Source: a virus
Length of the DNA: 29,218 bases
UHGV virus genome: UHGV-0177389
Direction: 5' to 3' (one strand)
In this document: positions 15,347 through 28,525 of the stretch, in pieces
How the letters are laid out: every line of letters starts with the position of its first letter
Numbering within the stretch: the first letter of the stretch is position 1
Notes under the pieces: model-generated
Databases searched by the model: none
What the model was told of the DNA's origin: nothing
What the model saw: the letters and a program-made list of their open reading frames with translations, nothing else
Position numbers and translations under genes: made by a program

Positions 15347-15383
15347 TTGACATTTAATGCACGAATTATTACCCTTCAGGTAA
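15347..15383 (+). promoter_or_regulatory. TTGACA -35-like hexamer followed by a perfect TTACC-N5-GGTAA operator-type palindrome (15369-15383)
   Basis: Seen in sequence; the palindrome matches the immunity-region operators; strand of the promoter is uncertain. Confidence 0.35.
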
Positions 15384-15705: not shown

Positions 15706-15782
15706 GTGGCATTAGCTCAGTTGGACAGAGCAACCGCCTTCTAAGCGGTTGGTCGCAGGTTCGAATCCTGCATGCCACGCCA
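15706..15782 (+). tRNA. tRNA-Arg (anticodon UCU)
   Basis: Manual cloverleaf: 7-bp acceptor stem GTGGCAT/ATGCCAC, D arm GCTC...GAGC, anticodon stem ACCGC/GCGGT with loop CTTCTAA (anticodon TCT), T arm GCAGG-TTCGAAT-CCTGC, encoded CCA. Confidence 0.9.
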
Positions 15783-15825
15783 GAATCACGCCTAAGGACC
15801 GTGATGCCAGAAGTTCCAGGGGCTT

Positions 15826-15867
15826 GGCGGTGATGGTTTCCCTTGAAGGACTATCACCGCCCTTTTT
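15826..15867 (+). terminator. intrinsic terminator candidate downstream of the tRNA
   Basis: 9-bp stem GGCGGTGAT/ATCACCGCC followed by TTTTT. Confidence 0.55.
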
Positions 15868-15945
15868 ACAGCAGGACGCCATTGCGATGACTTCATGCTG
15901 TAAACCAGTACAGCCACGGAAGGCATAACTCATTGCTTCCAGTTC

Positions 15946-15969
15946 GCCCGGTTCGCCGGGCATTTTTTT
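15946..15969 (+). terminator. intrinsic terminator candidate (GCCCGG-TTCG-CCGGGC plus T7 run)
   Basis: 6-bp GC stem with TTCG tetraloop followed by ATTTTTTT, ending about 16 nt before the ATG at 15986. Confidence 0.6.
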
Positions 15970-15985
15970 AAGGTGAGATTAGACT

Positions 15986-16357
15986 ATGAGTGACAAAGAC
16001 ATTGAATCTGAAATTCAGGCTAAAGGTTTAGCCGCGCCGCGCGTTACGCCAGACCATATCGAGAGCATTATTGCTCAGGAGGCATATTTCACAGCAGAAG
16101 ATGGTGTCTTTGGCGTAGCCATAAAAGCGAAACATACTGGCGGAGAGGTAAACTACCAGCCGCACGAATCACTTTCTCTGCTGACGTTCTGCGTTCTGGT
16201 GCTGCGCAACGGCTTCACCGTCACCGGAGAGAGCGCCTGTGCAAGCCCGGAAAACTTTGATGCGGAAATTGGTCGGAAGATTGCCCGGCAGAATGCTGTA
16301 AACAAAATCTGGATGCTTGAAGGTTACTTGCTGAAGCAGAAGTTAAGCGAGCAATAA
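15986..16357 (+). CDS. hypothetical protein (123 aa), opposite-strand moron inside the morphogenesis module
   Basis: ORF track; ATG preceded by AAGGTGAGA; followed by a palindrome and a terminator; function unknown. Confidence 0.55.
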   Translation: MSDKDIESEIQAKGLAAPRVTPDHIESIIAQEAYFTAEDGVFGVAIKAKHTGGEVNYQPHESLSLLTFCVLVLRNGFTVTGESACASPENFDAEIGRKIARQNAVNKIWMLEGYLLKQKLSEQ

Positions 16358-16361
16358 CACC

Positions 16362-16373
16362 GTGACATGTCAC
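16362..16373. repeat. perfect 12-bp palindrome GTGACATGTCAC, copy 1 (14-bp identity CGTGACATGTCACA with copy 2)
   Basis: Seen in sequence; lies between the 123-aa ORF stop and the terminase large subunit stop. Confidence 0.6.
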
Positions 16374-16377
16374 AAAC

Positions 16378-16404
16378 AGCCAGCCGATGAGCTGGCTTTG
16401 TTTT
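16378..16404 (+). terminator. intrinsic terminator candidate
   Basis: Stem AGCCAGC/GCTGGCT with 6-nt loop followed by TTGTTTT. Confidence 0.6.
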
Positions 16405-16447: not shown

Positions 16448-17923
16448 TTAAGCATAGGGATCGTAATCTGTAATGGCCTTGCCTTGCTGGTTCTGCTGCC
16501 CGGGAATTCGCAGACGCTTAGACACAGGGAACGCAAACGTCAGCAGTAGCGCATCGCCTTTACCCGGCGAACGCCCAAGCCGCTCCTTGATATCTTCCTT
16601 CGGTTCGATAACGATTTTACCGTCCACTCGAACTTTGTACTCTGCCGCCGACAGGTCGTCTGCTGTTTCCTGGTCATCCAGCATCCCGCCCAGCCTCAGC
16701 CATGTCTTGCATGAGTTGAACATCTCCCCACGCTTGTTGAGCATCTGCGGGTCAGTAGACGCGCCACCGAACGGAACAAGTTGCCATGTACGACCCCAGC
16801 CGTCACCGATTGACTTCAGACCAGTTCCGTAACCGAAGTCGATGAACACTGCGTCAGCCTGGTACTGGTCTTCAAAGTCAGCGATACGCTTCGCCATTAT
16901 CAGATCGTCAGTGGTCTTGTTGCCAGTCCACAGCACCTTACTGTGCAGCCCCTGCCGCAGGTATATCACAGCGTCATCAACTCCGGAGTATGCCGGGTCA
17001 ACGCCGATTATCACCGGAGCATGTGCAACCTGCGCAGCGGTTACCACCCGTTTCATTGCCTCATCAGTAAGACCGGTAGGGATAAACTGCAATTCAGATG
17101 CATCAGGGAATATGCCGCGCACACGGATTTTAACGAAGTCGCTGTCTTCCCCGTAGTCATCAACCCATTTCTGCAACTGCTGTTTGTTAGTACCTTCCAC
17201 CGTCCGGCTGTCAATCTGCGCAGTTTTCCAGCGGTGTTTGTATTTGCGGAAACATTCGCGAAAACGCCCGGTATTACGTGTAGGGTTTCCGAACGCCACC
17301 CAGATAATCTCAGTGTCTTCGTCCGTAAGCGCACCCTCAGCAACTTCCCACACCAGATCCGCAATGTTCGACGCTTCATCGAATACCACGATGATGCGTT
17401 TGCGCTCGTTGTGTAGTCCGGCGAATGCCTCAGTGTTGTGCTCAGACCAGGGGATTGCGTCAGCTCGCCACCGCTTGTCGTGCCCAGGATCATTGCTGTA
17501 CATCGCAGTAGCGGTACAGGTAAACCAGTCTTTCGTGATAGCAAGGTTCGACCACTTGATAATTTCCGGCCAGGTCTTCGTTCGTAGCTGGTTGTCGGTG
17601 TTGGCGGTCACCACGACCTTACAATCCTCGCAAGTGGACATGCCCCAGTTGATCAGCATTGAGATGAATGCGGATTTACCAATACCGTGACCAGAAGCGC
17701 GTGCCAGCATAAGCGGCTGATAGCGCGTCTCTGGATTCTGCAGGTGATCACGTATCTCTCGGAACGCATCAGCCTGCCACTGACGTGGGCCGGTAGCATG
17801 TGCCAGTTCAGTCCCCTCTTCCCCCCACGGGAACGCATAGAGGGCATAGCCAAGCGGATCGTGAGTGAACCCTGCAATATCCTCGATCAACTGCTCTTCA
17901 GGAGATAACGCTGTATCTGTCAC
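16448..17923 (-). CDS. terminase large subunit
   Basis: ORF track (GTG start overlapping the terS stop); Walker A-like GHGIGKS and Walker B-like IIVVFDEAS; 491 aa, upstream of portal. Confidence 0.85.
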   Translation of the reverse strand: MTDTALSPEEQLIEDIAGFTHDPLGYALYAFPWGEEGTELAHATGPRQWQADAFREIRDHLQNPETRYQPLMLARASGHGIGKSAFISMLINWGMSTCEDCKVVVTANTDNQLRTKTWPEIIKWSNLAITKDWFTCTATAMYSNDPGHDKRWRADAIPWSEHNTEAFAGLHNERKRIIVVFDEASNIADLVWEVAEGALTDEDTEIIWVAFGNPTRNTGRFRECFRKYKHRWKTAQIDSRTVEGTNKQQLQKWVDDYGEDSDFVKIRVRGIFPDASELQFIPTGLTDEAMKRVVTAAQVAHAPVIIGVDPAYSGVDDAVIYLRQGLHSKVLWTGNKTTDDLIMAKRIADFEDQYQADAVFIDFGYGTGLKSIGDGWGRTWQLVPFGGASTDPQMLNKRGEMFNSCKTWLRLGGMLDDQETADDLSAAEYKVRVDGKIVIEPKEDIKERLGRSPGKGDALLLTFAFPVSKRLRIPGQQNQQGKAITDYDPYA

Positions 17924-18513
17924 TGATTACCATCCTGACGTTCTTTGAGTCGCTTCCTGGCTGCCGCTATGCGATCAGCAATTGTCACATTCACATTAAC
18001 ATCCAGGCGTTCTTTGAATGCATTGACGTCGACGTGCTTACCAATCAGTTCGAGGTTCTTCACCTTGTCAGGCCATTTAATTTTTTTGAGAATTGTCTCT
18101 ATCGAATCCTCGTTCATGTTCATGATGGTCGATGACAGATCAAAGCCACTAAGCGTAGTGCGCCAGATTTTCGGCCACTCGCGGATTGGCTTAAGGCTCC
18201 CATCGTCATTGAGGATATCAATCACGTCCATCTGGTCGATCTCCACCAGGCGCATGAGAACGTAATCGGCACTGACGCGCATTCGTTTGTTGCGCTCCTC
18301 CATCAACTCGGCAATCCGTTTTTGAATGCGTTCATCGCGCATCATGACACTGGCTTTAACTGCCGCTGTATTTGGGGAGAATCCTGCGTTAATCGCTGCC
18401 TGAGTCTGGTTTTCAGGCGTTTTGATGTATGACTGGCAATAAGCCTCCTGCATTGCGGTTAGTGGCTTAAATTGCGTTGATTTGCGTTTATAGGTTTTAG
18501 GTTCAGCAGGCAT
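17920..18513 (-). CDS. terminase small subunit
   Basis: ORF track 17920..18594 starts at TTG and its N-terminal extension covers a terminator hairpin; trimmed to ATG at 18513 (GGTGG 5 nt upstream; ATG at 18516 is the alternative); basic N-terminus; immediately upstream of terL. Confidence 0.6.
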   Translation of the reverse strand: MPAEPKTYKRKSTQFKPLTAMQEAYCQSYIKTPENQTQAAINAGFSPNTAAVKASVMMRDERIQKRIAELMEERNKRMRVSADYVLMRLVEIDQMDVIDILNDDGSLKPIREWPKIWRTTLSGFDLSSTIMNMNEDSIETILKKIKWPDKVKNLELIGKHVDVNAFKERLDVNVNVTIADRIAAARKRLKERQDGNQ

Positions 18514-18557
18514 CATAACCACCGTGGTAATAGTTACCGTTGTGGTAATAGTACCAT

Positions 18558-18585
18558 GCAAAATAAAGCCGCCATAGTTGGCGGC
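18558..18585 (-). terminator. intrinsic terminator candidate immediately upstream of terS
   Basis: 7-bp stem GCCGCCA/TGGCGGC with 4-nt loop, followed on the minus strand by TTTATTTT. Confidence 0.55.
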
Positions 18586-18626
18586 AGTATTCAAAACCCA
18601 TCAAATTCATCATGCATAATCTACTC

Positions 18627-18638
18627 GTGACATGTCAC
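18627..18638. repeat. perfect 12-bp palindrome GTGACATGTCAC, copy 2
   Basis: Seen in sequence; overlaps the stop of the 115-aa ORF, about 115 nt upstream of the terS start. Confidence 0.6.
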
Positions 18639-18982
18639 ACTATTAATTTCGTTTCATGCCAGCCTTTAGTCACCCAGCATTGCGAGTCACCATTACACGG
18701 GCATGAATTAACGGGAACTCTCTCGCCGCACTTACCGCAAAGTTTTCTGCTGATCGATTTTATACGCCCGCGCACACGTGCATCATCCTGGCGGATCAGC
18801 AGCGCGATGTACTCGGCCATTTCATAGGGATCGCGACCAGGGCGCCGGGCGGCGCAGTTCCGCGCCAGCATTTCCTGCTCCTGCTTATCCAGCACCAGTT
18901 CAATTTTGCGCTCACCGGCGGCGGACTGCCGAGCGCGCTGCGCGGCTTTGCGTTCTGCGGGGGATTTAGCCACGAATCGCAC
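18635..18982 (-). CDS. hypothetical Arg/Ala-rich protein (115 aa) with Cys-rich C-terminus
   Basis: ORF track (GTG start; start uncertain); C-terminal CGKCG...CPCNGDSQC suggests a zinc ribbon; last ORF before terS. Confidence 0.35.
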   Translation of the reverse strand: MRFVAKSPAERKAAQRARQSAAGERKIELVLDKQEQEMLARNCAARRPGRDPYEMAEYIALLIRQDDARVRGRIKSISRKLCGKCGERVPVNSCPCNGDSQCWVTKGWHETKLIV

Positions 18983-19088
18983 TCCACGCCAGATTGATTA
19001 ATGACTCCCAGGTAATATAAACCCGGATACCAGCAACCAGGCCGAAACCAATCACCATGGCATAAAGCAGAGCGTTGCACTTGTTCAT
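18966..19088 (-). CDS. small hydrophobic protein (40 aa), putative membrane peptide
   Basis: Manual translation MNKCNALLYAMVIGFGLVAGIRVYITWESLINLAWSAIRG; ATG overlaps the upstream stop (ATGA) with GGAGGTGA 7 nt upstream; below the ORF-track size cut-off. Confidence 0.4.
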   Translation of the reverse strand: MNKCNALLYAMVIGFGLVAGIRVYITWESLINLAWSAIRG

Positions 19089-19855
19089 CACTTCACCTCC
19101 TGCGGCGGTTCTGGTAGCGGCATCCAGTGGGTTACTTTCGATGCCGGTTCTTCCCCATCGTCAGTAACTGCCCACCATTTGTTTCTCGACCAATCGTAAT
19201 ACCCTTCGAAGGTATCGCACTCAGTCCAGCCGTAAGACTTACCCCAACACCAAACATACTGTTTATCGTTCGGCATTCGCTCACTACAGCTTATCCAACC
19301 ATCCGGAGTTGCCGGAGTTGGTCCATCGAATTCGGGCATGTCAGGACCTTTTCTGATAGCTTTAGCCAGCTCCAGCGGGTCATCGTAAAGCCAGTCGCCA
19401 GTTTGTGGGTGATTTGCTTCTGCAAGCTGCGCAGCCCATTCAAGACCATCTTTTTGACCTTGGAGATAATCAAGCGGCAACTCTTCATGATTACTTGCAG
19501 GTTCGGCACTATGAAGCATGGCAGCGCGGCAGGCGTTCCAGCCTCTTACCTCTGCAATAGCGGCAACCGCATCAACCGCGTACATGCTAAGAGGATTAGG
19601 AATTGGTTTTTCTTCCGGTACTACTGGCGCTGGAGGGGTGGCGTAGAGTGGAACTCCTCCCCCTCCACCAGAAAATTCATTGCGAGCGTTATACTCACGA
19701 CCATCTGCGTCATCACGCATCCACGCCACCGGCTCTGCTTCCAGCGATGCCAGAGCAATTTCATAAGCACGGCGCTCAATATTGTCTCGCACGTCCAGGC
19801 TGCCGATTCGCTCTTTGATTTCTTTAATCAGTTCTTTGTCGGTAAAAGTGGTCAT
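19088..19855 (-). CDS. DUF551-type prophage protein (255 aa)
   Basis: ORF track; Trp-rich C-terminal region (WISCSERMPNDKQYVWCWGK...WMPLPEPP) recalled as typical of DUF551; GGAGAG RBS. Confidence 0.6.
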   Translation of the reverse strand: MTTFTDKELIKEIKERIGSLDVRDNIERRAYEIALASLEAEPVAWMRDDADGREYNARNEFSGGGGGVPLYATPPAPVVPEEKPIPNPLSMYAVDAVAAIAEVRGWNACRAAMLHSAEPASNHEELPLDYLQGQKDGLEWAAQLAEANHPQTGDWLYDDPLELAKAIRKGPDMPEFDGPTPATPDGWISCSERMPNDKQYVWCWGKSYGWTECDTFEGYYDWSRNKWWAVTDDGEEPASKVTHWMPLPEPPQEVK

Positions 19856-19856
19856 G

Positions 19857-20675
19857 TCACTCTCCTTTGATGCGAATGCCAGCGTCAGACATCATATGCA
19901 GATACTCAACTGCATCCTGAACCCATTGACCGCCAATCCCGTAATAGCGATGCGTAATGATGTCGATAGTTACTAACGGGTCTTGTTCGATTAACTTCCG
20001 CAGAAACTCTTCCAGGTCACCAGTGCAGTGCTTGATGACAGGAGTTTTCCCAGGATGGCGAACAACAAGAAACTGATTTCCGACTTCACGGACTTCGTTG
20101 CTTTTCAGTTCTGCAATGCGCTTCTCTGAGGCTTCCAGCTTCTCTCGCATATCGTCAACGTACTCGACCAGAGAACCGCCAGCAGGAATTTCGCACTCCT
20201 CGACCAGTTGGAAGTAGATATCAGCTGCGGCCCGTGTGTTGCTATGCCTAGCGTCGCCCATCTCACCTTCACGAAGAGCATCGCGTTCGGCGGTAAGATT
20301 GGCTATTTTGCTGTCTTTGCCTTCCAGCTCAACGCGCAGCTTCCCTACCGTTAGCGCAATATCCTCGTTCTCCTGGTCGCGGCGTTTGATGTATTGCTGG
20401 TTTCTTTCCCGTTCATCCAGTAATGCCAAGACGGTAGCCGGATTAGCTGCGGCGATGAATTCAGCATTGGCCTGCTGTTCCATTTGGAAATCTTCATCGA
20501 AACCGCTTTCAGGATGCGCTCCTTCAATTCTGCAAATGGGAAGATATCCAACAACGTCACGATGAATTAGCGCATCATCACAATCAAATCGGCTCTCTCC
20601 ATATTCGAGCGACCATACACCACACGTTGCTTTTTCTGCCTTGGCACGCAGTGCCTGATAGTCAATCTTGCTCAT
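19857..20675 (-). CDS. Ea22/ead-like prophage protein (272 aa), probable
   Basis: ORF track; N-terminus MSKIDYQALRAKAEKAT recalled as Ea22-like; central coiled-coil-like region. Confidence 0.5.
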   Translation of the reverse strand: MSKIDYQALRAKAEKATCGVWSLEYGESRFDCDDALIHRDVVGYLPICRIEGAHPESGFDEDFQMEQQANAEFIAAANPATVLALLDERERNQQYIKRRDQENEDIALTVGKLRVELEGKDSKIANLTAERDALREGEMGDARHSNTRAAADIYFQLVEECEIPAGGSLVEYVDDMREKLEASEKRIAELKSNEVREVGNQFLVVRHPGKTPVIKHCTGDLEEFLRKLIEQDPLVTIDIITHRYYGIGGQWVQDAVEYLHMMSDAGIRIKGE

Positions 20676-20676
20676 G

Positions 20677-20976
20677 TCACATCACCCTGAATCCGTTGCA
20701 TTTACGTAAAAAATCGCAGATATAGCCCTTCATTTTTTCATGCCAATCCCGATCATTCCCATTGCACCAACCATCAGGTGGAGTCCAGTTTTCTATCAGA
20801 GCAGCCATTTTCTTTGCTTTCGCCGGAGTAGCTGTTGCGGTATCGCAGTAATGACGAGTGTCAACAAACTTATCCATGCCATCGATATCAAGTACGCAAA
20901 ACCATGTGTGATTCGGCATTTCAACAGATGGTATTTGTTGCCCACGTCGACGTTTATCAATAAGACATACAGTCAT
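20677..20976 (-). CDS. hypothetical protein (99 aa)
   Basis: ORF track; AAGGTGG RBS; ATGA overlap with the upstream gene. Confidence 0.45.
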   Translation of the reverse strand: MTVCLIDKRRRGQQIPSVEMPNHTWFCVLDIDGMDKFVDTRHYCDTATATPAKAKKMAALIENWTPPDGWCNGNDRDWHEKMKGYICDFLRKCNGFRVM

Positions 20977-21518
20977 GGTTCCACCTTCTCTATTTGCTTA
21001 AGACCGTCTCTCACTGCATTAAGTACGCGTTCCAGATACTGGTATTTCGGGTTTGGTATCGTTGGCCAGTTGGCATACCACGGCTCATCACCAAAGAGAT
21101 TCAGTAGTTTGTTACCGACGCCGAAACAGCAGCAGCTTTCTTTTACGTCATCGGCGTTTTCCGCCTCGTACCACATTTCGCGAGCCAGTACGGCGTCGAT
21201 TTCTCTCTCTCTTCGTAACTTTATGATTTCTGACTTCACGAAAAGCAGATTTGCATCGTTGTCATCGTCGACCGTGCTTCGCAGTTGAGGGTCGAAATTG
21301 TCGATTAGATAGTCGTTGCTGACTCGCTTAATGAACGTCTGCACATCATCACCGCCCATAGCAAACCAAGCCGCAGTCCACGCTTTTCCGTAGCAGGTGA
21401 TGGTGATTCTTCCCTTTCCAGGTTCATAGTTTTCAATCATCACTCGAACCGGATCTAGTCTCTCTGCACCGGTTATAACGAATGACAACACATCAATCTT
21501 TTCAACCGTTACACTCAC
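20973..21518 (-). CDS. hypothetical protein (181 aa)
   Basis: ORF track 20973..21551 trimmed to GTG at 21518, which overlaps the upstream stop with GGAGG upstream; acidic, contains CCC. Confidence 0.45.
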   Translation of the reverse strand: MSVTVEKIDVLSFVITGAERLDPVRVMIENYEPGKGRITITCYGKAWTAAWFAMGGDDVQTFIKRVSNDYLIDNFDPQLRSTVDDDNDANLLFVKSEIIKLRREREIDAVLAREMWYEAENADDVKESCCCFGVGNKLLNLFGDEPWYANWPTIPNPKYQYLERVLNAVRDGLKQIEKVEP

Positions 21519-21994
21519 TGGTTGCCTCCTTTGCGAAGCTGTTCCGCACAATGCAGCAGGGCGTCCGTCGCATATTTAAGCCTCACTAGCTCACCATCAT
21601 CCATTCCCGCGAGATTCGCGTGTTTAACGAACGCCGAGCAAAGGTCATTAAACGCCTGCGCACGTACTTCAGCCAGGAAAGCATCGGTGGCTGGAGTTTC
21701 GATATCGTTAATTTCAGGAAGAATCTCTTCCCATGTAGCGATATCGCCATTCAAATGCCATCCGGCAATTCCACTGGAGTTATCCGCAACACTCCGAACG
21801 GCTTCAATAGTTTCATGCATTGCCGCACTCTCCGCCGCCAGCGCATTAGCACGCACCAGTTGCACTTCCAGTTGCGTTGCCAAATCGCTGATCAGCTTTG
21901 CCACACTGCGCATATCAACGGCACCACATTCTGCTTTCAGTTCCGAAGCCATCTCATGCCCGGCGGCAACTAACCCTTTGATATTACTTTCCAT
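21515..21994 (-). CDS. hypothetical protein (159 aa), possibly Ea22/ead-like
   Basis: ORF track; GAGGG RBS; segment TDAFLAEVRAQ recalled from Ea22-like proteins. Confidence 0.45.
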   Translation of the reverse strand: MESNIKGLVAAGHEMASELKAECGAVDMRSVAKLISDLATQLEVQLVRANALAAESAAMHETIEAVRSVADNSSGIAGWHLNGDIATWEEILPEINDIETPATDAFLAEVRAQAFNDLCSAFVKHANLAGMDDGELVRLKYATDALLHCAEQLRKGGNQ

Positions 21995-22055
21995 CTTTAC
22001 CCTCGCTTATCCACATAACTTATTGATTACATTGATAACTAAATAGATCGTCGAT

Positions 22056-22403
22056 TCAGAACTCTTCGATGTTCCAGCCACCACCTGCTTTCTTTGGTTT
22101 AACCGTTACCCCGATGATTCGGAACGGATACTGATCTGCGGCGACTTTGGTTTTCACTCTGGCGTCATCGGTCCAGAATCCCCCTTTCACTTCGTGCAGC
22201 TCCATCTCGCCGGTGGCGAGCATCACAGCGAAATCGGGCGTATAGAACGTGTTATTAGCTAACCGCAGCTTGATACCCTCGAATCGATACCAGGCGATTT
22301 CCCCTGCACGTTTACGCAGCTCAAGGTGCTGGCAATACGCAGATTCTGTTTTGTTCATCTGGCCTGTTTTGAGTCGACCAAGAGCCTGTATCTGTTTTCT
22401 CAT
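22056..22403 (-). CDS. putative PD-(D/E)xK nuclease-fold protein (115 aa, DUF1064-like)
   Basis: ORF track; AAGGGG RBS; candidate motif TPDF...ELHEVKGG; first gene after the internal operator-flanked promoter. Confidence 0.45.
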   Translation of the reverse strand: MRKQIQALGRLKTGQMNKTESAYCQHLELRKRAGEIAWYRFEGIKLRLANNTFYTPDFAVMLATGEMELHEVKGGFWTDDARVKTKVAADQYPFRIIGVTVKPKKAGGGWNIEEF

Positions 22404-22406
22404 GAT

Positions 22407-22483
22407 TTACCCCTTAGGTAATTAAAAACCACATAAGACATGAAATCAATAGAGATTAGAACATTTTATTACCTTCCAGGTAA
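22407..22483 (-). promoter_or_regulatory. internal promoter flanked by two TTACC-N5-GGTAA operators
   Basis: Minus strand reads operator (22469-22483), 19 nt, -35 TTGATT (22444-22449), 17 nt, -10 TTTAAT (22421-22426), operator (22407-22421), AAGGGG RBS, ATG at 22403. Confidence 0.5.
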
Positions 22484-22496
22484 TCATATAGACGTA

Positions 22497-22515
22497 AAAA
22501 AATGCGCTATCGCGC
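22497..22515 (-). terminator. weak intrinsic terminator candidate after the P-like gene
   Basis: 4-bp GC stem with 4-nt loop followed on the minus strand by ATTTTTTT; stem is short. Confidence 0.3.
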
Positions 22516-22520
22516 TGGTA

Positions 22521-23306
22521 TTACTTGATAAATCCTGCCGCCTTTCCCCGCCTGTATTCCTCCATCAGCCACTGCGCCGGTGTTATTCCCCCAAGGGTGG
22601 CGGCGTTAGGCATGCACCCGAAACTTCGCCCTGGTGGATGGTAAACGTCTCTCCCTGTGTCCGGAGGCGTACTCATGGGCTCTGGCTTTGCCTGTATGCT
22701 GATCACCGGATCGGGTATCTGCTGTCCGGAAGCCACCTTTTTCGCCCAATCATCGAGCAGCCTGCGTGCGTGTTTCTCAACCTCAATCTCGCTAAGCTGG
22801 CGCTGATACATTGCACGGCGGGTATCACATACGACCCAGTACATAACCGGATGTCGCCACGGGAATCTTTCGGGACCACCAGGATATAAACTTTTTTCCT
22901 TGCTGTACCGGTGAAACTCCGCCATCACATCGTCAATGGTGACGCCAAGAACCATCTTGCTGTCTTTGCACCACTTGATAAATTGCCCTGGAGACGGCCA
23001 GAACGGAGATTCACTGGCGCGGGCGTGGCGCATACCAGCAGAAACCTGTTCACGGGTTCGGATCCCCCCTTCGGCAAACGCAGCAATCCACTGCTGTTTT
23101 GCAGCAACTTCCTGCTCTGGCGTCTTCAGGTTGGTTACCACTGCCGCCGGAAACAGTTGTTTCAGCTGTTTAAAAAGGGCATCAACAAGCCTCTCTGCTG
23201 ACATGTTCACCACATTGTCATTGTTGACGTACTGATGCTCATAACCTGACATGCGAGAAAGGGCTTCTCCGTCACGGTTTTGTATCGCGGTAAAAACGTT
23301 GTTCAC
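22521..23306 (-). CDS. replication protein P-like (helicase loader)
   Basis: ORF track 22521..23321; GTG at 23306 preferred because GGAGGA lies 6 nt upstream and it overlaps the O-like stop; core W(I/V)xAFxExGI...GMRxAR...PFxPSPGQFxxWC matches recalled lambda P. Confidence 0.7.
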   Translation of the reverse strand: MNNVFTAIQNRDGEALSRMSGYEHQYVNNDNVVNMSAERLVDALFKQLKQLFPAAVVTNLKTPEQEVAAKQQWIAAFAEGGIRTREQVSAGMRHARASESPFWPSPGQFIKWCKDSKMVLGVTIDDVMAEFHRYSKEKSLYPGGPERFPWRHPVMYWVVCDTRRAMYQRQLSEIEVEKHARRLLDDWAKKVASGQQIPDPVISIQAKPEPMSTPPDTGRDVYHPPGRSFGCMPNAATLGGITPAQWLMEEYRRGKAAGFIK

Positions 23307-24118
23307 AAGAAATCCTCCCATGCTTCAGGGCTGTTCCAGTGCGGAACGTTGTTATCAGGTAATGTTGATTGCTTCTGTCTGCTAATCTGCAGCCGCCTTG
23401 CCAGCTTCTGCTCCCACTGTGCCTGATGGTATGCCTTACCCTCAGCCATCCAGTAAATTCTGAACTCTGCAAGTTCCTGTGCCGTTGGCAGACTGTCCAG
23501 GTAGATCCCCTGCAATGAGCTTTTCCGAAGAAAGTCATCTGATGGCTGCCATTGTTCATGCATGACAAATTTGCCTAATTGCCCTGGCCCACCAGGAGGA
23601 ACAAAGTTATTCATCACGGCGTTGTTTGCTCCGGGGTCATGAGGCACAGAATCCCCGCTTTTTGTCCTGCTCTCCCTCTCTTGGTTAAATGACTGGTTAT
23701 ATGACTGGTTCTGGATCCCGTTTTTGGGATCATTCAACATCCCGTTTTTGGGATCATTCAACATCCCGTTTTTGGGTATATTCCCGTTTTCGGTAACATT
23801 ACCGTTTTCGGGTTCATTGCCCCCCTCCCGGTTGCCTTTAATGTTCCCGTTTTTGGTTATATTAAGAGAGAAAACCCGCACTCTTTTTGTCGCTCCCTTT
23901 CTCTCTCCGGTATCTGAAATAAGCCCCATTTTCATGAGCGATATAAGCCCGGCCTGCACGGTTTTTTTATTCAGGCAAGTGTCTTTAACGAGGCGTTCTA
24001 TGCTGGGGTAGCAGAGGTTATATTCATCGGCTCTGTCAGCCATCGAGAGCAGTATGAGCTTTAATGATGAGCTACCTGGATCTGTCTCCCAGGCCCAATC
24101 TGTTGCATGTCTGCTCAT
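23303..24118 (-). CDS. replication initiator O-like protein
   Basis: ORF track; GGAG RBS; directly upstream of and overlapping the P-like gene; iteron array inside the coding sequence encodes an Asn/Gly-rich repetitive linker, as in lambda O. Confidence 0.65.
   Translation of the reverse strand: MSRHATDWAWETDPGSSSLKLILLSMADRADEYNLCYPSIERLVKDTCLNKKTVQAGLISLMKMGLISDTGERKGATKRVRVFSLNITKNGNIKGNREGGNEPENGNVTENGNIPKNGMLNDPKNGMLNDPKNGIQNQSYNQSFNQERESRTKSGDSVPHDPGANNAVMNNFVPPGGPGQLGKFVMHEQWQPSDDFLRKSSLQGIYLDSLPTAQELAEFRIYWMAEGKAYHQAQWEQKLARRLQISRQKQSTLPDNNVPHWNSPEAWEDFL
23712..23862. repeat. iteron array, putative origin of replication inside the O-like gene
   Basis: At least six direct repeats with core CCCGTTTT(T)GG; the first three are 24-bp units starting at 23717, 23741 and 23765. 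Confidence 0.65.
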
Positions 24119-24133
24119 GATTAATCTCCGCTA

Positions 24134-24334
24134 TCAGCTTGAATGTTGTGGGGAGGAATTAATCATGATCTGCTTAATCTCTGCCCTGATACGACGGTTT
24201 GATTCCATGGTGCACTCAACACAGTGTCCGTTGTAAACCCAGCGTTCACTGTCATGTCCGTGCTTACATGTTTTTCCGGTGTAGTAGCGTTTAAGTCCGC
24301 GCTTTGCGGCATCAATACGTGTAATGATTTCCAT
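24134..24334 (-). CDS. small putative zinc-binding protein (66 aa) at the cII position
   Basis: ORF track 24134..24397 (TTG start) trimmed to ATG at 24334; motif CKHGH...CVEC; stop overlaps region just upstream of the O-like start. Confidence 0.4.
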   Translation of the reverse strand: MEIITRIDAAKRGLKRYYTGKTCKHGHDSERWVYNGHCVECTMESNRRIRAEIKQIMINSSPQHSS

Positions 24335-24414
24335 GGTAAGCCCTGTTATTAGTATTGGGATTACGGTCATTTTGTGCTGACACAAAAAAAATATCAACCA
24401 TATTTGGTTTTTTA

Positions 24415-24429
24415 TTACCTTTGAGGTAC
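24415..24429. promoter_or_regulatory. imperfect operator-like site TTACC-TTTGA-GGTAC with downstream -35-like TTGATA
   Basis: Seen in sequence; on the minus strand reads site, 18 nt, TTGATA, 17 nt, CAAAAT (weak -10). Confidence 0.3.
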
Positions 24430-24440
24430 GAATAGATATG

Positions 24441-24462
24441 AAAAGACCGCCGGGTGGCGGTC
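24441..24462 (-). terminator. intrinsic terminator candidate after the cro-like gene (tR1-like position)
   Basis: 7-bp stem GACCGCC/GGCGGTC followed on the minus strand by TTTTCATATCTATT, about 23 nt after the cro-like stop. Confidence 0.5.
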
Positions 24463-24484
24463 TACAGAGGGTTGTAGCTGGATA

Positions 24485-24715
24485 TCATGAGTAGAAGAAG
24501 TATGCCAGTTCTGCTTTTGAGCGCAGCCATTGTCTTGTTTTACAGGCTTTAAAAAGCCCATTCATCAATACTTTACCTGGCATTTTGCGCTTACCTGTTA
24601 AGTGAGTCTGGATATAGTGACTCGTCGTTCCGGCTTCCTGTGCGAAGGCTTCACGCTCATCCGGAGTAAGTGCAAGCCAGTGCTTTTTGAAATCGAAATG
24701 TCCGTTATCGCTCAT
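24485..24715 (-). CDS. Cro-like HTH DNA-binding protein (76 aa)
   Basis: ORF track; divergent from the repressor gene across an operator-containing intergenic region; HTH-like segment AGTTSHYIQTHLTGKR. Confidence 0.55.
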   Translation of the reverse strand: MSDNGHFDFKKHWLALTPDEREAFAQEAGTTSHYIQTHLTGKRKMPGKVLMNGLFKACKTRQWLRSKAELAYFFYS

Positions 24716-24751
24716 AGCTATTGCCTGATATTTATTTCAGATAATAAATAT

Positions 24752-24814
24752 TCACCCATAAGGTAACAAAAATCAAGGATAGTTACCCATGAGGTGCATT
24801 TACCTGTTGGGTAA
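24752..24814. promoter_or_regulatory. right operator region: three TTACC-N5-GGTAA-type sites plus cro-like promoter
   Basis: Sites at 24752-24766 (TCACC-CATAA-GGTAA), 24783-24797 (TTACC-CATGA-GGTGC) and 24800-24814 (perfect); minus-strand -35 TTGATT (24771-24776) and -10 GAATAT (24748-24753), 17-nt spacer. Confidence 0.55.
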
Positions 24815-24869
24815 TATTGCTTTAAATTGAATCATCTACTGATTCATATATGAGGCGATTTTCCAGAAA

Positions 24870-25454
24870 ATGAAAAGTATCCAGGACGTCCGCAGGCAAA
24901 ATCTCAACGACTTGATCGACCGTGAATTCAATGGTGTTCAGACGCGGATGGCTGAAAAACTTGGAACTCAGGCAAATCTGGTAAACCGCTGGGCTCTTGG
25001 TAAGAAGGTTATCGGCGATCAGGTTGCGCGAAAAATTGAAGCTGCCGCCAATAAACCCCGTAACTGGCTTGATATCGATCGCTCGCTTTCTCAGGAAGGT
25101 TTTCAGCCTGTCGGCCCAAGCGACATTGGCCAGCTGGCGGCTCACAACCTGGAACGCTGGATGAGCGAAAGCCGCGACCTTTCAACACAGGGAAAACTTC
25201 ACCGCGCATCCGGCGTAGCCCAGGTGACAATCAGCCGCCTGTTAAACAATGAGGTCAGCGTTTCCATTTCCACCCTGGAGAATGTTGCATCCGCATTCGG
25301 GCGTCACGGCTATGAATTACTGATTCACCCGCACGACCCTGCGACCATCAACTATGATCGCTCGCGCTACGCATTGTTACCCGAAACCGAGAAAGCAAAG
25401 ATCGAAAGTTACATTGAATTTGTCATCAACCAGAACGAAAAAAACAAACAATAA
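24870..25454 (+). CDS. prophage repressor (194 aa) with two predicted HTH segments and no recognisable S24 peptidase domain
   Basis: ORF track; HTH-like TRMAEKLGTQANLVNRW and ASGVAQVTISRLLNNE; divergent from the cro-like gene; operators on both sides. Confidence 0.6.
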   Translation: MKSIQDVRRQNLNDLIDREFNGVQTRMAEKLGTQANLVNRWALGKKVIGDQVARKIEAAANKPRNWLDIDRSLSQEGFQPVGPSDIGQLAAHNLERWMSESRDLSTQGKLHRASGVAQVTISRLLNNEVSVSISTLENVASAFGRHGYELLIHPHDPATINYDRSRYALLPETEKAKIESYIEFVINQNEKNKQ

Positions 25455-25475
25455 AACCATATTTTTCAGTAAGTA

Positions 25476-25499
25476 AGCCGCCTTATGGCGGCTTTTTTA
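25476..25499 (+). terminator. intrinsic terminator after the repressor gene
   Basis: 7-bp stem AGCCGCC/GGCGGCT with 4-nt loop followed by TTTTTTA, 22 nt after the stop. Confidence 0.65.
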
Positions 25500-25511
25500 T
25501 TGCCTATTCGA

Positions 25512-25588
25512 TTACCTAACGGGTAATTTTTTTAACTCATATCTATTGACATCAAACCATATACGCATAATTATTACCTCAACGGTAA
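25512..25588 (+). promoter_or_regulatory. left operator region: two perfect TTACC-N5-GGTAA sites flanking a promoter
   Basis: Sites at 25512-25526 and 25574-25588; -35 TTGACA at 25546-25551; -10-like AATTAT about 17 nt downstream; precedes the plus-strand early operon. Confidence 0.55.
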
Positions 25589-25607
25589 CAGACCGAGGTA
25601 ACAAGTT

Positions 25608-26880: not shown

Positions 26881-27818
26881 GCAACGACATCGCAAACATC
26901 AACGCACCAGTAGACACAGCAATCGCTGGAACTGCTGCAACTATTTTCAGCCCAGACGGCTTGAACCAACTGATGAAATTCGCCGAGGTAATGGCGCAAA
27001 GCCGCGTAACGGTACCGGCGCACCTCGCCGGGAAACCAGCTGATTGCATGGCCGTGGCAATGCAGGCTGCGCAGTGGGGAATGAACCCGTTTGCCGTGGC
27101 TCAGAAAACCCATGTTGTGAACGGCACGCTAGGTTATGAAGCCCAATTAGTAAACGCAGTTATCTCAACGATGTCGCCAACAAAAGATCGCATCAACTAC
27201 GAGTGGTTCGGGCCGTGGGAACGCGTGATCGGTAAGTTTGTTGAGAAAACATCCAAAAACGGCAATCCATATATCGCACCAGGCTGGACTCTAAAAGACG
27301 AAGAAGGCTGCGGTGTTCGCGTATGGGCAACCATGAAGGGCGAGGATCAACCTCGAGTGCTTGAGTTAATGCTGTCTCAAGCACAGGTAAGAAACTCCAC
27401 ACTTTGGGCCAGTGATCCGAAACAACAACTCGCATACCTTGCGACAAAACGCTGGTCTCGCCTGCACTGTCCTGACGTAATCATGGGCGTCTACACCCCA
27501 GACGAATTACAGGAAACGGCACCGCGCGTTGAGCGAGACATTACTCCGCAAACGACCACTGCTGCGGGAATGAACAGTCTGATCAACGCTAAACCAGCGA
27601 AAAAGCCTGATGAGCAAACGCGTAAATCGGACAGCCGTGATCCAGAAGAAATGCTGATGGCCTTTACCAGCGCAGCGATGAATTACAGCACTGTCTCCGA
27701 ACTGGATAAGGCTTACAAATACATTGCACAAAAACTTTCAGATGATGACGAACTGCTGGCAAAAGCCACCGACGTTTACAGCGTTCGTCGGGAAGAATTA
27801 AACGAAACATCTATGTAA
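26877..27818 (+). CDS. RecT/Red-beta family single-strand annealing protein, probable
   Basis: ORF track 26850..27818 trimmed to ATG at 26877 (ATGA overlap with the exonuclease stop); segment AQWGMNPF resembles recalled lambda Bet QYGLNPW. Confidence 0.6.
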   Translation: MSNDIANINAPVDTAIAGTAATIFSPDGLNQLMKFAEVMAQSRVTVPAHLAGKPADCMAVAMQAAQWGMNPFAVAQKTHVVNGTLGYEAQLVNAVISTMSPTKDRINYEWFGPWERVIGKFVEKTSKNGNPYIAPGWTLKDEEGCGVRVWATMKGEDQPRVLELMLSQAQVRNSTLWASDPKQQLAYLATKRWSRLHCPDVIMGVYTPDELQETAPRVERDITPQTTTAAGMNSLINAKPAKKPDEQTRKSDSRDPEEMLMAFTSAAMNYSTVSELDKAYKYIAQKLSDDDELLAKATDVYSVRREELNETSM

Positions 27819-27867: not shown

Positions 27868-28116
27868 ATGAAAGGTGCATTAGGTAAGAAGGAACTCCTG
27901 GCGGTGGTTCCACTGTCATGGAGCACTATCGACCGTATGGAGCGCGCAGGGGAATTTCCTAAACGCTGGTATATCACCGATAAACGCTGCGCATGGAACC
28001 GTGATGAAGTTGAGCGTTGGCTTGATGAACGTCAGGCAGCAAGCCCGGCAGAGTTCCAGGGTAAAAAACCTCCTGTTCAGCAACGTGTATATCGTCCCGT
28101 GAGCAACGCGGCATGA
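27868..28116 (+). CDS. AlpA-family HTH regulator / excisionase-like protein (82 aa)
   Basis: ORF track; AGAGAGG RBS; segment LSWSTIDRMERAGEFPK...WNRDEVERWL fits the recalled AlpA pattern. Confidence 0.6.
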   Translation: MKGALGKKELLAVVPLSWSTIDRMERAGEFPKRWYITDKRCAWNRDEVERWLDERQAASPAEFQGKKPPVQQRVYRPVSNAA

Positions 28117-28225: not shown

Positions 28226-28525
28226 GTGAGAAAGTTAAGCCGACTTGAAAAATATCACATGAACAAGGTTTCAATGCGCAGTCCGTCAAAGATTGTCGCC
28301 GTTACTCCTGCGGCGATAGAGATCGAAAAACGCGCGATTGAAAGAGAGAAAAAAGGGCAGTTCCGCATTGCCGCTCACCTTTGGCTTCAGTGTATGGATG
28401 TTGCTTCTGGTGATGTTGAGCGTGCAAGGATCGCGGTTCGCAGGGACCAATGTATCACAAAAGGTAACGGCCTTCGCCGTGGCGACTATAGCGGCATAGG
28501 ATGTTGTGGGGTGGTTTATGACTAA
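28226..28525 (+). CDS. ANR-family-like small regulator (99 aa), tentative
   Basis: ORF track (GTG start with GAGGG 9 nt upstream); segment FRIAAHLWLQCMDVA...RARIAVRRDQC resembles the recalled ANR pattern. Confidence 0.4.
   Translation: MRKLSRLEKYHMNKVSMRSPSKIVAVTPAAIEIEKRAIEREKKGQFRIAAHLWLQCMDVASGDVERARIAVRRDQCITKGNGLRRGDYSGIGCCGVVYD

Follow-up and report, generated by a model that had tools for sequence, protein, structure and literature searches.

How are the packaging genes of a temperate phage switched on when no Q antiterminator is recognisable ahead of them? This question is raised by the virus genome UHGV-0177389, whose full length of 29,218 nucleotides (nt) we refer to as the window. 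In it, the gene for the terminase small subunit, terS, lies immediately behind an intrinsic terminator and a Cys-rich open reading frame (ORF) of 115 amino acids (aa). The window is a Uetakevirus (epsilon15/phiV10-like) prophage, of a temperate podophage type: a megablast of positions 17800-25500 against phage records returned Uetakevirus-type phages, the best being EC.W1-9 (99.6% identity), phiv142-3, PAS61, phiV10, and TL-2011b, with Enterobacter phage Tyrion as a more distant match. The lytic genes are on the minus strand; the opposite strand carries the repressor gene (24870-25454) and a pL-like operon. Along the minus strand, a pR-like promoter is followed by a cro-like gene, a small Cys-containing ORF, an O/DnaT-like gene, and a lambda-P-like gene; then come accessory genes (DUF1064, Eae-like, DUF7739, Ead/Ea22, DUF551, a 41-aa membrane ORF, and the 115-aa ORF), followed by terS, terL, and the head and tail genes. 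We propose that the lytic units of this prophage, terS-terL included, are each gated by the prophage repressor Rep, and that the 115-aa protein is an auxiliary regulator of the boundary; we hold this combined proposal to be evenly poised between right and wrong.

An earlier note on this DNA had recognised no Q-like antiterminator between the P-like gene and terS, and had proposed comparing the ORFs from 18635 onward with Q and Ogr/Delta. We scanned all 13 ORFs from 18635 to 24715 against Pfam, PHROGs, and NCBIfam, and none matched a Q family, Ogr/Delta, or another known late-regulator family; a search against PDB sequences gave no match either. The absence of a recognisable Q homolog is thus borne out over this extended interval. 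The families that were found are DUF551, Ead/Ea22, DUF7739, DUF1064 (resolvase-like), lambda-P, DnaT/O-like, and a Cro-like PHROG, together with the PHROG of the 115-aa ORF described below. In the literature, we found no paper covering how epsilon15/phiV10-type phages activate their late genes, and the ZX5 paper holds no data on late regulation.

The terminator that the note had placed just before terS is genuine. It is kept in relatives, and the records of phiV10 and epsilon15 annotate the same one. Its hairpin has a folding free energy of -12.6 kcal/mol (-15.8 with flanks) and its end lies 42-45 nt before the terS ATG (18516/18513); it most likely ends the early-right operon. Over the 121 bp between the 115-aa ORF and terS, the minus strand reads, from the stop codon onward, palindrome, 41-nt spacer, terminator, -10-like element, operator, degenerate operator, and ATGATG (Table 1). 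The gap had been thought to leave little room for a conventional promoter, and late expression to need read-through or an unrecognised activator. Neither view holds as stated: the 44 nt between terminator and terS accommodate an extended -10-like element, which is conserved, as well as a repressor operator, and with these in place the sequence makes no such demand.

The -10-like element predicts a start near 18541 and a 5' untranslated region of ~25-28 nt with GGTGG inside; the -35 position would fall within the terminator stem and has no match. We compared 14 distinct versions of this segment from ~75 loci. The TG and hexamer bases T1, A2, A5, and T6 show little or no change. Free variation is seen at the spacer base, at hexamer position 3, and at -16, and three of the 14 versions differ at position 4. 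Shared descent contributes to this pattern of substitution, which is nonetheless the one that a working extended -10 promoter would be expected to leave. The pL promoter offers a parallel, in that its -10 hexamer AATTAT overlaps an operator by two bases; the terS-proximal site, with TACTAT, has the same geometry, and because TACTAT is preceded by TGg we regard it as an extended -10 element.

Rep itself is a full-length homolog of the SPC32H repressor (Table 1), SPC32H being an epsilon15-like Salmonella phage whose Rep/Ant pair is known from PDB 5d50/5d4z. Alongside this homolog, the window has palindromic operators at both pL and pR. The operator motif, TTACC-N5-GGTAA, occurs seven times exactly in the window, as against 0 in 100 shuffles, and three more copies have one mismatch. 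A module in which a terminator is followed 13-19 nt later by an operator recurs three times on the rightward path, after the cro-like gene, the P-like gene, and the 115-aa ORF. In the epsilon15 record, this motif is marked as a binding site of the repressor at OL/OR and likewise ahead of terS, gp3, the tail fibre gene, and gp43; we found a further perfect operator there, TTACCATATGGGTAA, at 24704-24718 upstream of the lysis cassette, which the record leaves unannotated, and a one-mismatch operator at 26882 before int. EC.W1-9 has 17 operators, the majority of which lie in gaps where transcription units, including late ones, begin. The published work on SPC32H concerns, as far as we found, the immunity region, and in it we did not find the late-unit operators or the epsilon15 gp49-type protein addressed.

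Table 1. Genes, sites, and control elements of the window that bear on the early/late junction.
Feature	Position	Strand	Remarks
Operator	15369..15383		Between moron cluster and gp3/portal late unit; corresponds to epsilon15 2932
Site B	16362..16373		Second exact GTGACATGTCAC; between stop of moron ORF (15986-16357, +) and its terminator (16378-16397)
terL	16448..17923	-	
terS	17920..18513	-	197 aa from ATG 18513; other ATG 18516; annotated terminase small subunit in EC.W1-9; epsilon15 gp1
Degenerate operator copy	18516-18530		TTACCACGGTGGTTA; overlaps terS ribosome-binding site
terS-proximal operator	18533..18549		ATTACCACAACGGTAAC; shares last 2 nt of -10-like hexamer; putative Rep site
Extended -10-like element	18548..18556	-	TGgTACTAT; TG 18556-18555, hexamer 18553-18548; no -35
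Intrinsic terminator	18558..18585	-	Stem GCCGCCA/TGGCGGC 18585-18568, loop ACTA, U-tract TTTATTTTGC 18567-18558
41-nt spacer	18586..18626	-	3' two-thirds left over from the 3' end of a 70-aa ORF that relatives have here (locus L083: ...GATGAATTTGATGGACTTTGAATACTGCCGCC)
Site A	18627..18638		Perfect 12-bp palindrome GTGACATGTCAC; includes the stop TGA (18637-18635) of the 115-aa ORF
115-aa ORF	18635..18982	-	epsilon15 gp49/N15 gp46 family; last gene of early-right operon
Two operators	22407-22421, 22469-22483		Upstream of DUF1064 gene, just past weak terminator (~22515-22496) after P-like gene
lambda-P-like gene	22521-23321	-	
O/DnaT-like gene	23303-24118	-	
Terminator after cro-like gene	24463-24444	-	One-mismatch operator 24429-24415 follows 14 nt on
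cro-like gene	24485-24715	-	Cro-like PHROG
pR-like promoter	24769-24741	-	Operators 24752-24766 and 24800-24814
Prophage repressor	24870..25454	+	Full-length match to SPC32H Rep, PDB 5d50, E 4e-42
pL-like promoter	25546-25574	+	Operators 25512-25526 and 25574-25588; the latter shares the -10/operator geometry of the terS-proximal site

Judging from these sequence features, terS-terL is probably a separate transcription unit with its own promoter, gated by Rep. The junction would then do without Q, and the lytic genome would be read in several short units, most of them starting near an operator and several ending at a terminator. The terminator at 18585-18558 would form the 3' end of the early-right unit, and the terS-terL unit would start ~25 nt past it at TGgTACTAT, the last two bases of which are the first two of ATTACCACAACGGTAAC. 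In a lysogen, Rep bound to ATTACCACAACGGTAAC and the terminator upstream would jointly keep the packaging genes silent; after an antirepressor has taken Rep away, the route known from SPC32H, the late unit could fire without antitermination. At the boundary, the 115-aa protein would sit as a dimer on the GTGAC-NN-GTCAC palindrome at its own stop codon and modulate RNA polymerase, as an auxiliary regulator and not as the master late switch. Because complete relatives carry the operator before every lytic unit and the -10-like element is conserved, we consider this the simpler route to late expression. It suggests an architecture unlike that of lambda, which would put the silencing of late genes directly under the prophage repressor, without a Q cascade. 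Among phages of the epsilon15/phiV10 type are typing and reporter phages for O157 as well as Salmonella phages that convert serotype.

Several points weigh against this proposal. The terS -10 hexamer matches at only 4 of 6 positions and has no -35, and a consensus promoter scan did not flag it, so that the promoter may be weak or may need help. Were all units to fire on derepression, nothing evident would time them, and that would be unusual in a temperate phage. A literature search found no transcript data for any Uetakevirus. Some operators have no recognisable adjoining promoter, and some may be roadblocks, not promoter operators, by analogy with the 'stoperators' of mycobacteriophage L5. 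Those sites, bound by gp71, are reportedly asymmetric and orientation-dependent and block elongation. The likeness to L5 lies in the many repressor sites spread across lytic intergenic gaps, through which late regions would be silenced directly; the operators of the window differ in being palindromic, in following terminators, and in overlapping the -10 at pL and terS.

The gene directly upstream of the terminator, the 115-aa ORF, had been named in the earlier note as the nearest candidate for a late activator. Its probable start is the second GTG (18973), and the resulting protein of 112 aa matches most relatives in length. Its only match in our scans is PHROG 536, 'transcriptional regulator' (E 1e-53), and RefSeq gives the same name to phiV10 p55 and epsilon15 gp49. 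The gp49 family is large, with 728 matches in a large database, 147 clusters at 50% identity, and ~560 relatives in IMG/VR. Its consensus runs RKxxQRxR...G......L...E...L, then PY...EY...LI..D, a long helix, and CxKCG..LP..C.G...GD..CW.T. C82 and C85 are invariant, R11, R16, E57, L62, P90, G98, and C102 nearly so, and the fourth Cys lies in the variable stretch 93-96. An AlphaFold model built on the family alignment (predicted local distance difference test, pLDDT, 93.5) has helices at 8-22, 33-45, 55-77, and 103-110 and a knuckle at 78-102. We take the protein to have a ribbon-helix-helix (RHH)-like N-terminal half, with RKxxQRxR as its basic helix, followed by a long helix and what appears to be a new C-terminal four-Cys zinc knuckle. 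The basic N-terminal segment, strand, and two helices predicted for it would liken it to the RHH regulators Arc, Mnt, CopG, MetJ, omega, and ParG, and to MatP, a site-specific organiser containing an RHH part, as would its putative palindromic target; unlike them, the protein has the additional conserved zinc knuckle, for which there is no structural match, and its putative site is at the 3' end of its own gene, not at its promoter.

Other assignments of this protein found no support. A Foldseek search of the full model against PDB gave no match, and the C-terminal domain does not have a TraR/DksA-like fold. There is no Pfam or PHROG match to Ogr/Delta, zinc-finger activators of ~70-80 aa, and the Cys spacing, C-X2-C-X8-10-C-X5-7-C, differs from their C-X2-C-X22-C-X4-C. 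Homology to MatP was rejected at the level of sequence (hhalign probability 0.2%), which leaves a resemblance.

The stop codon of the 115-aa ORF is part of a perfect 12-bp palindrome, GTGACATGTCAC, which is present twice in the window (18627, site A, and 16362, site B) when ~0.03 exact copies are expected from base counts. We followed its linkage to the gene in 12 species-representative genome loci, whose proteins are 62-86% identical, and in the best 80 of ~560 IMG/VR loci. A GTGAC-NN-GTCAC palindrome is at the 3' end of the gene in 10 of the 12 genome loci, including those with unrelated downstream DNA, and in 76 of the 80 closest IMG/VR loci; in an eleventh genome locus (L011), the copy lies ~200 nt further downstream. 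It is also found at the gene end in phiKO2 and PhiR46_1 (N15-like), in a Yersinia P2-like phage, and in Vibrio phages 10N.237 and VPHZ6, so that the linkage extends over ~90 independent contexts and four or five phage types. The VPHZ6 gene ends in TAA, with the palindrome beginning two bases later, and in another group it lies 7 nt past a TAA; because it is found beyond the stop codon in these cases, coding constraint does not account for its conservation. Three copies are present in Vibrio phage K308, one 226 nt after the gene, one 31 nt before terS, and one 31 nt before another gene.

The half-sites do not change, and the central pair is AT, AG, CT, AC, GC, or TG. No covariation between protein and palindrome was therefore seen in distant homologs, the half-sites being invariant, and the evidence for the pair is one of linkage. 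Because the strand residues vary, the invariant residues of the basic helix are the best candidates for reading the DNA. The linked palindrome is the short symmetric site that an RHH protein would be expected to have, and most likely a dimer of the 112-aa protein reads the two fixed half-sites at its own stop codon. The gp49 family would thus be a widespread, uncharacterised RHH/zinc-knuckle family with a well-defined probable DNA site, in phages from Vibrio to Escherichia. We found no paper containing the palindrome string.

The half-sites GTGAC/GTCAC are shared with matS, the centre having 2 bp where that of matS has 3 bp. In E. coli, matS is GTGACRNYGTCAC. The window has no 13-bp site of this kind. 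The hosts of phages with the gp49 family are Enterobacterales, Vibrio, and Aeromonas, which are also the groups in which MatP occurs.

What lies downstream of site A differs among relatives. In 45 of the 80 IMG/VR loci it is as in the window (41-nt spacer, terminator, operator, terS), and in 28 a 70-aa ORF begins 10 nt past the palindrome and is followed by the same terminator, operator, and terS. The spacer of the window is a deletion remnant of the second arrangement, because it ends with the last 26 nt of the 70-aa ORF of relatives. Other arrangements have LexA-box promoters with antirepressor-like or UmuD-like genes, AlpA-like genes, or other terminators; where LexA-box promoters are present, their -35 starts 6-7 nt past the palindrome. 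Because these layouts differ, the distance between palindrome and terminator is unconstrained. The LexA-controlled genes beside the palindrome of relatives also fit the antirepressor route of induction. Perfect LexA boxes (TACTGT-N8-ACAGTA) are found right after the palindrome in loci L007, L008, L026, L027, L030, L044, L055, L136, and L142.

Two observations concern the same stretch of the window. A promoter-like match, GTGACA-18-CATGAT (18638-18609, 9/12), was considered as a pR'-like promoter and rejected: it lies in the remnant of the 70-aa ORF, is not conserved in epsilon15-type, L010, L012, or L014 contexts, and is probably fortuitous. The minus-strand RNA of 18510-18660 has a folding z of -3.7, its upstream segment pairing with the -10/operator segment and enclosing the terminator hairpin. 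This fold could be a processing site in read-through transcripts; on inspection, the long-range pairing around the terminator is not conserved in epsilon15-type spacers.

Further copies of the palindrome mark gene junctions elsewhere. Site B lies in a plus-strand moron cluster (15706-16397) situated between terL and the portal unit and oriented against the late genes; this cluster also includes a tRNA-Arg(UCU) (15706-15782) and plus-strand terminators at 15826-15861 and 15946-15961. The moron ORF before site B belongs to the N4-gp49/Sf6-gp66 family (PF13876), and its terminator abuts the end of terL. Epsilon15 and many relatives have this layout too, although the moron on the variable side differs, and epsilon15 has a further copy, site C, at the gp18 stop, 2 nt before a terminator. 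EC.W1-9, nearly identical and complete, has site A and no site B. The extra palindromes are therefore optional, and the idea that they are needed for late transcription is weakened.

An exact scan of IMG/VR with TGTGACATGTCACG gave at least 120 loci, in 46 of which a gp49-family gene ends at the match. About 25 more are junctions of the B or C type, where a constant late gene with its hairpin faces one of at least seven different variable genes. Four such contigs also appear in the list of 80 (of ~560) contigs that encode a gp49 protein, about the number expected if all of them encode the protein. Over 152 distinct palindrome sites, 44% have a terminator within 60 nt, compared with 9% of random positions. 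The palindrome marks precise junctions of moron exchange, LexA-controlled antirepressor-like genes included. On six IMG/VR contigs (L043, L091, L129, L062, L072, and L077), it stands within dense arrays of GTGAC/GTCAC(G) half-sites, and no gp49-family gene was detected within the fetched stretch; these arrays may be iteron-like binding arrays for another protein.

The 115-aa protein could be a functional analog of Q without sequence kinship to it. It would bind the palindrome and load onto or modify polymerase, causing read-through of the terminator, and of obstacles beyond it, into the late genes, the Rep-gated promoter being only basal. We consider this unlikely, if the strongest of the alternatives. 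As with lambda Q/qut/pR'-tR' (also Q82 and Q21), the gene is the last of the early-right operon, the site follows it immediately, and the terminator precedes the late genes, so that gene, site, terminator, and late genes stand in the Q-qut-tR' order; phage cis sites, moreover, are usually beside the gene whose product uses them. The enrichment of terminators near the palindrome is in keeping with such a role, as is the fact that sites A and C of the epsilon15 type precede terminators in the late direction; at site B, however, the order in that direction is hairpin, then palindrome, and EC.W1-9 has site A alone. The distance to the terminator is 22 nt, 41 nt, ~250 nt with a gene between, or more than 600 nt. 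While a terminator does separate the regulator from the late genes, the protein has no sequence or fold likeness to any Q family, and no promoter-embedded Q-binding element was found: the palindrome is a symmetric 12-bp site without a conserved promoter or sigma-dependent pause element, and in the window a repressor operator and a promoter-like element follow downstream of the terminator. The predicted fold class is also a poor fit, since RHH proteins are nearly all repressors.

The distribution of the family bears on the same point. As the Q analogy would have it, strong terminators stand directly before the holin or first late gene of Vibrio phages that have a homolog, downstream of regulator and palindrome. 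In phiKO2, however, the homolog with the same palindrome adjoins a Q-like gene that has its own annotated late promoter and terminator, and in the Yersinia P2-like phage it coexists with a 72-aa regulator at the Ogr position (putatively Ogr, by position). Because homologs coexist with such regulators, the gp49 family is probably not a general late activator, and because a conserved protein-site pair presumably does the same job even there, we rate the Q-like reading low. The earlier suggestion thus stands in part: the Cys-rich ORF is the sole regulator-like protein at the boundary and has a likely cognate site, but a role as general late activator is unlikely. A variant in which elongating polymerase picks up the gp49 protein from the palindrome, giving a Q-like read-through switch that needs no dedicated promoter or sigma-dependent pause, seems to us more doubtful again. 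Protein and palindrome would in that case be a phage module that is widely exchanged and not described before. If true, such palindrome-loaded read-through would explain late timing in Q-less Uetakeviruses and in several Vibrio siphophages.

The Vibrio terminators are found at 33227-33514 of K308 (L019) and at 3758-4470 of L022, a few hundred nt downstream of regulator and palindrome, where the first late or lysis gene lies directly behind one or two of them; the pair in L022 consists of identical copies. The position of the 115-aa gene also recalls the RinA/Ltr-type activators of Gram-positive systems, small regulators that are likewise encoded immediately upstream of terS; the 115-aa protein is not homologous to them, and a terminator and an operator intervene, whereas RinA/Ltr activate a promoter upstream of terS.

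Only slightly less probable than the Q analogy is that the 115-aa protein is an RHH repressor or roadblock that insulates unit boundaries and has no positive role in late expression. It might stop read-through from the early operon, antisense moron transcripts running into late genes, or LexA-controlled antirepressor promoters. The fold class suits such a function, and so do the surroundings of several copies: at B-type sites, 0-4 nt separate the palindrome from the terminator that follows it, which belongs to a moron converging on a late gene; in relatives, LexA-box promoters have their -35 6-7 nt downstream of the palindrome's end; and in N15-like and other contexts the next start codon follows ~10 nt after it. 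Yet a block at site A would oppose useful read-through into terS, one at site B would block late transcription leaving terL, and an autoregulatory operator at the 3' end of the regulator's gene would be unusually placed.

A role outside transcription, in the manner of terS-pac, ParB-parS, or MatP-matS, is improbable. The pair would then serve packaging initiation, replication mode, or genome organisation, for which the usual presence of one universal site per genome, beside the gene, would be apt. The palindrome is 120 bp upstream of terS in the window and 31 nt upstream in K308, and in the Yersinia P2-like phage it is at the end of the early operon, where, judging from the P2 map, P2 has cos; in N15-like phages, by contrast, it is ~8 kb from cos. 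A kinship with MatP is opposed by the hhalign result, by a spacing 1 bp off that of matS, and by the lack of the 13-bp matS in the window.

Processive antitermination from pR, by an N-like protein or a put-like RNA acting through all three rightward terminators, is the least probable reading. The three terminators between pR and terS do recall lambda N-dependent operons. Against it, neither an arginine-rich motif nor a family match was found in the first pL genes (50 and 104 aa), Rfam gave no match of any kind, to put, nut-like RNAs, and riboswitches included, at E <= 1 in 17800-25600, and an operator comes after each rightward terminator, as would be expected of separate units.

Outside the junction, a small ORF (24134-24397, minus strand) lies in the cII position. 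It has 87 aa, probably 66, belongs to PHROG 1081, contains a C-x-H...C-x2-C motif, and shows weak likeness to endonuclease VII-like families. The neighbouring O/DnaT-like gene contains tandem repeats that encode a repeated PKNGMLND motif: a 24-bp unit in 2.6 copies with 100% identity (23715-23776), an 18-bp unit in 3.1 copies (23764-23818), and a 12-bp unit in 2.4 copies (23682-23710). By analogy with lambda, these repeats (23682-23818) resemble the iterons of an origin that lies within the initiator gene. In the pL operon, two plus-strand genes encode an AlpA-family protein (27868-28116, PF05930) and a PerC-family 'transcriptional activator' (28226-28525, PF06069, PHROG 868). Both are further candidates for gene control that lie outside the interval considered in the earlier note. 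One Pseudomonas member of the AlpA family is an antiterminator.

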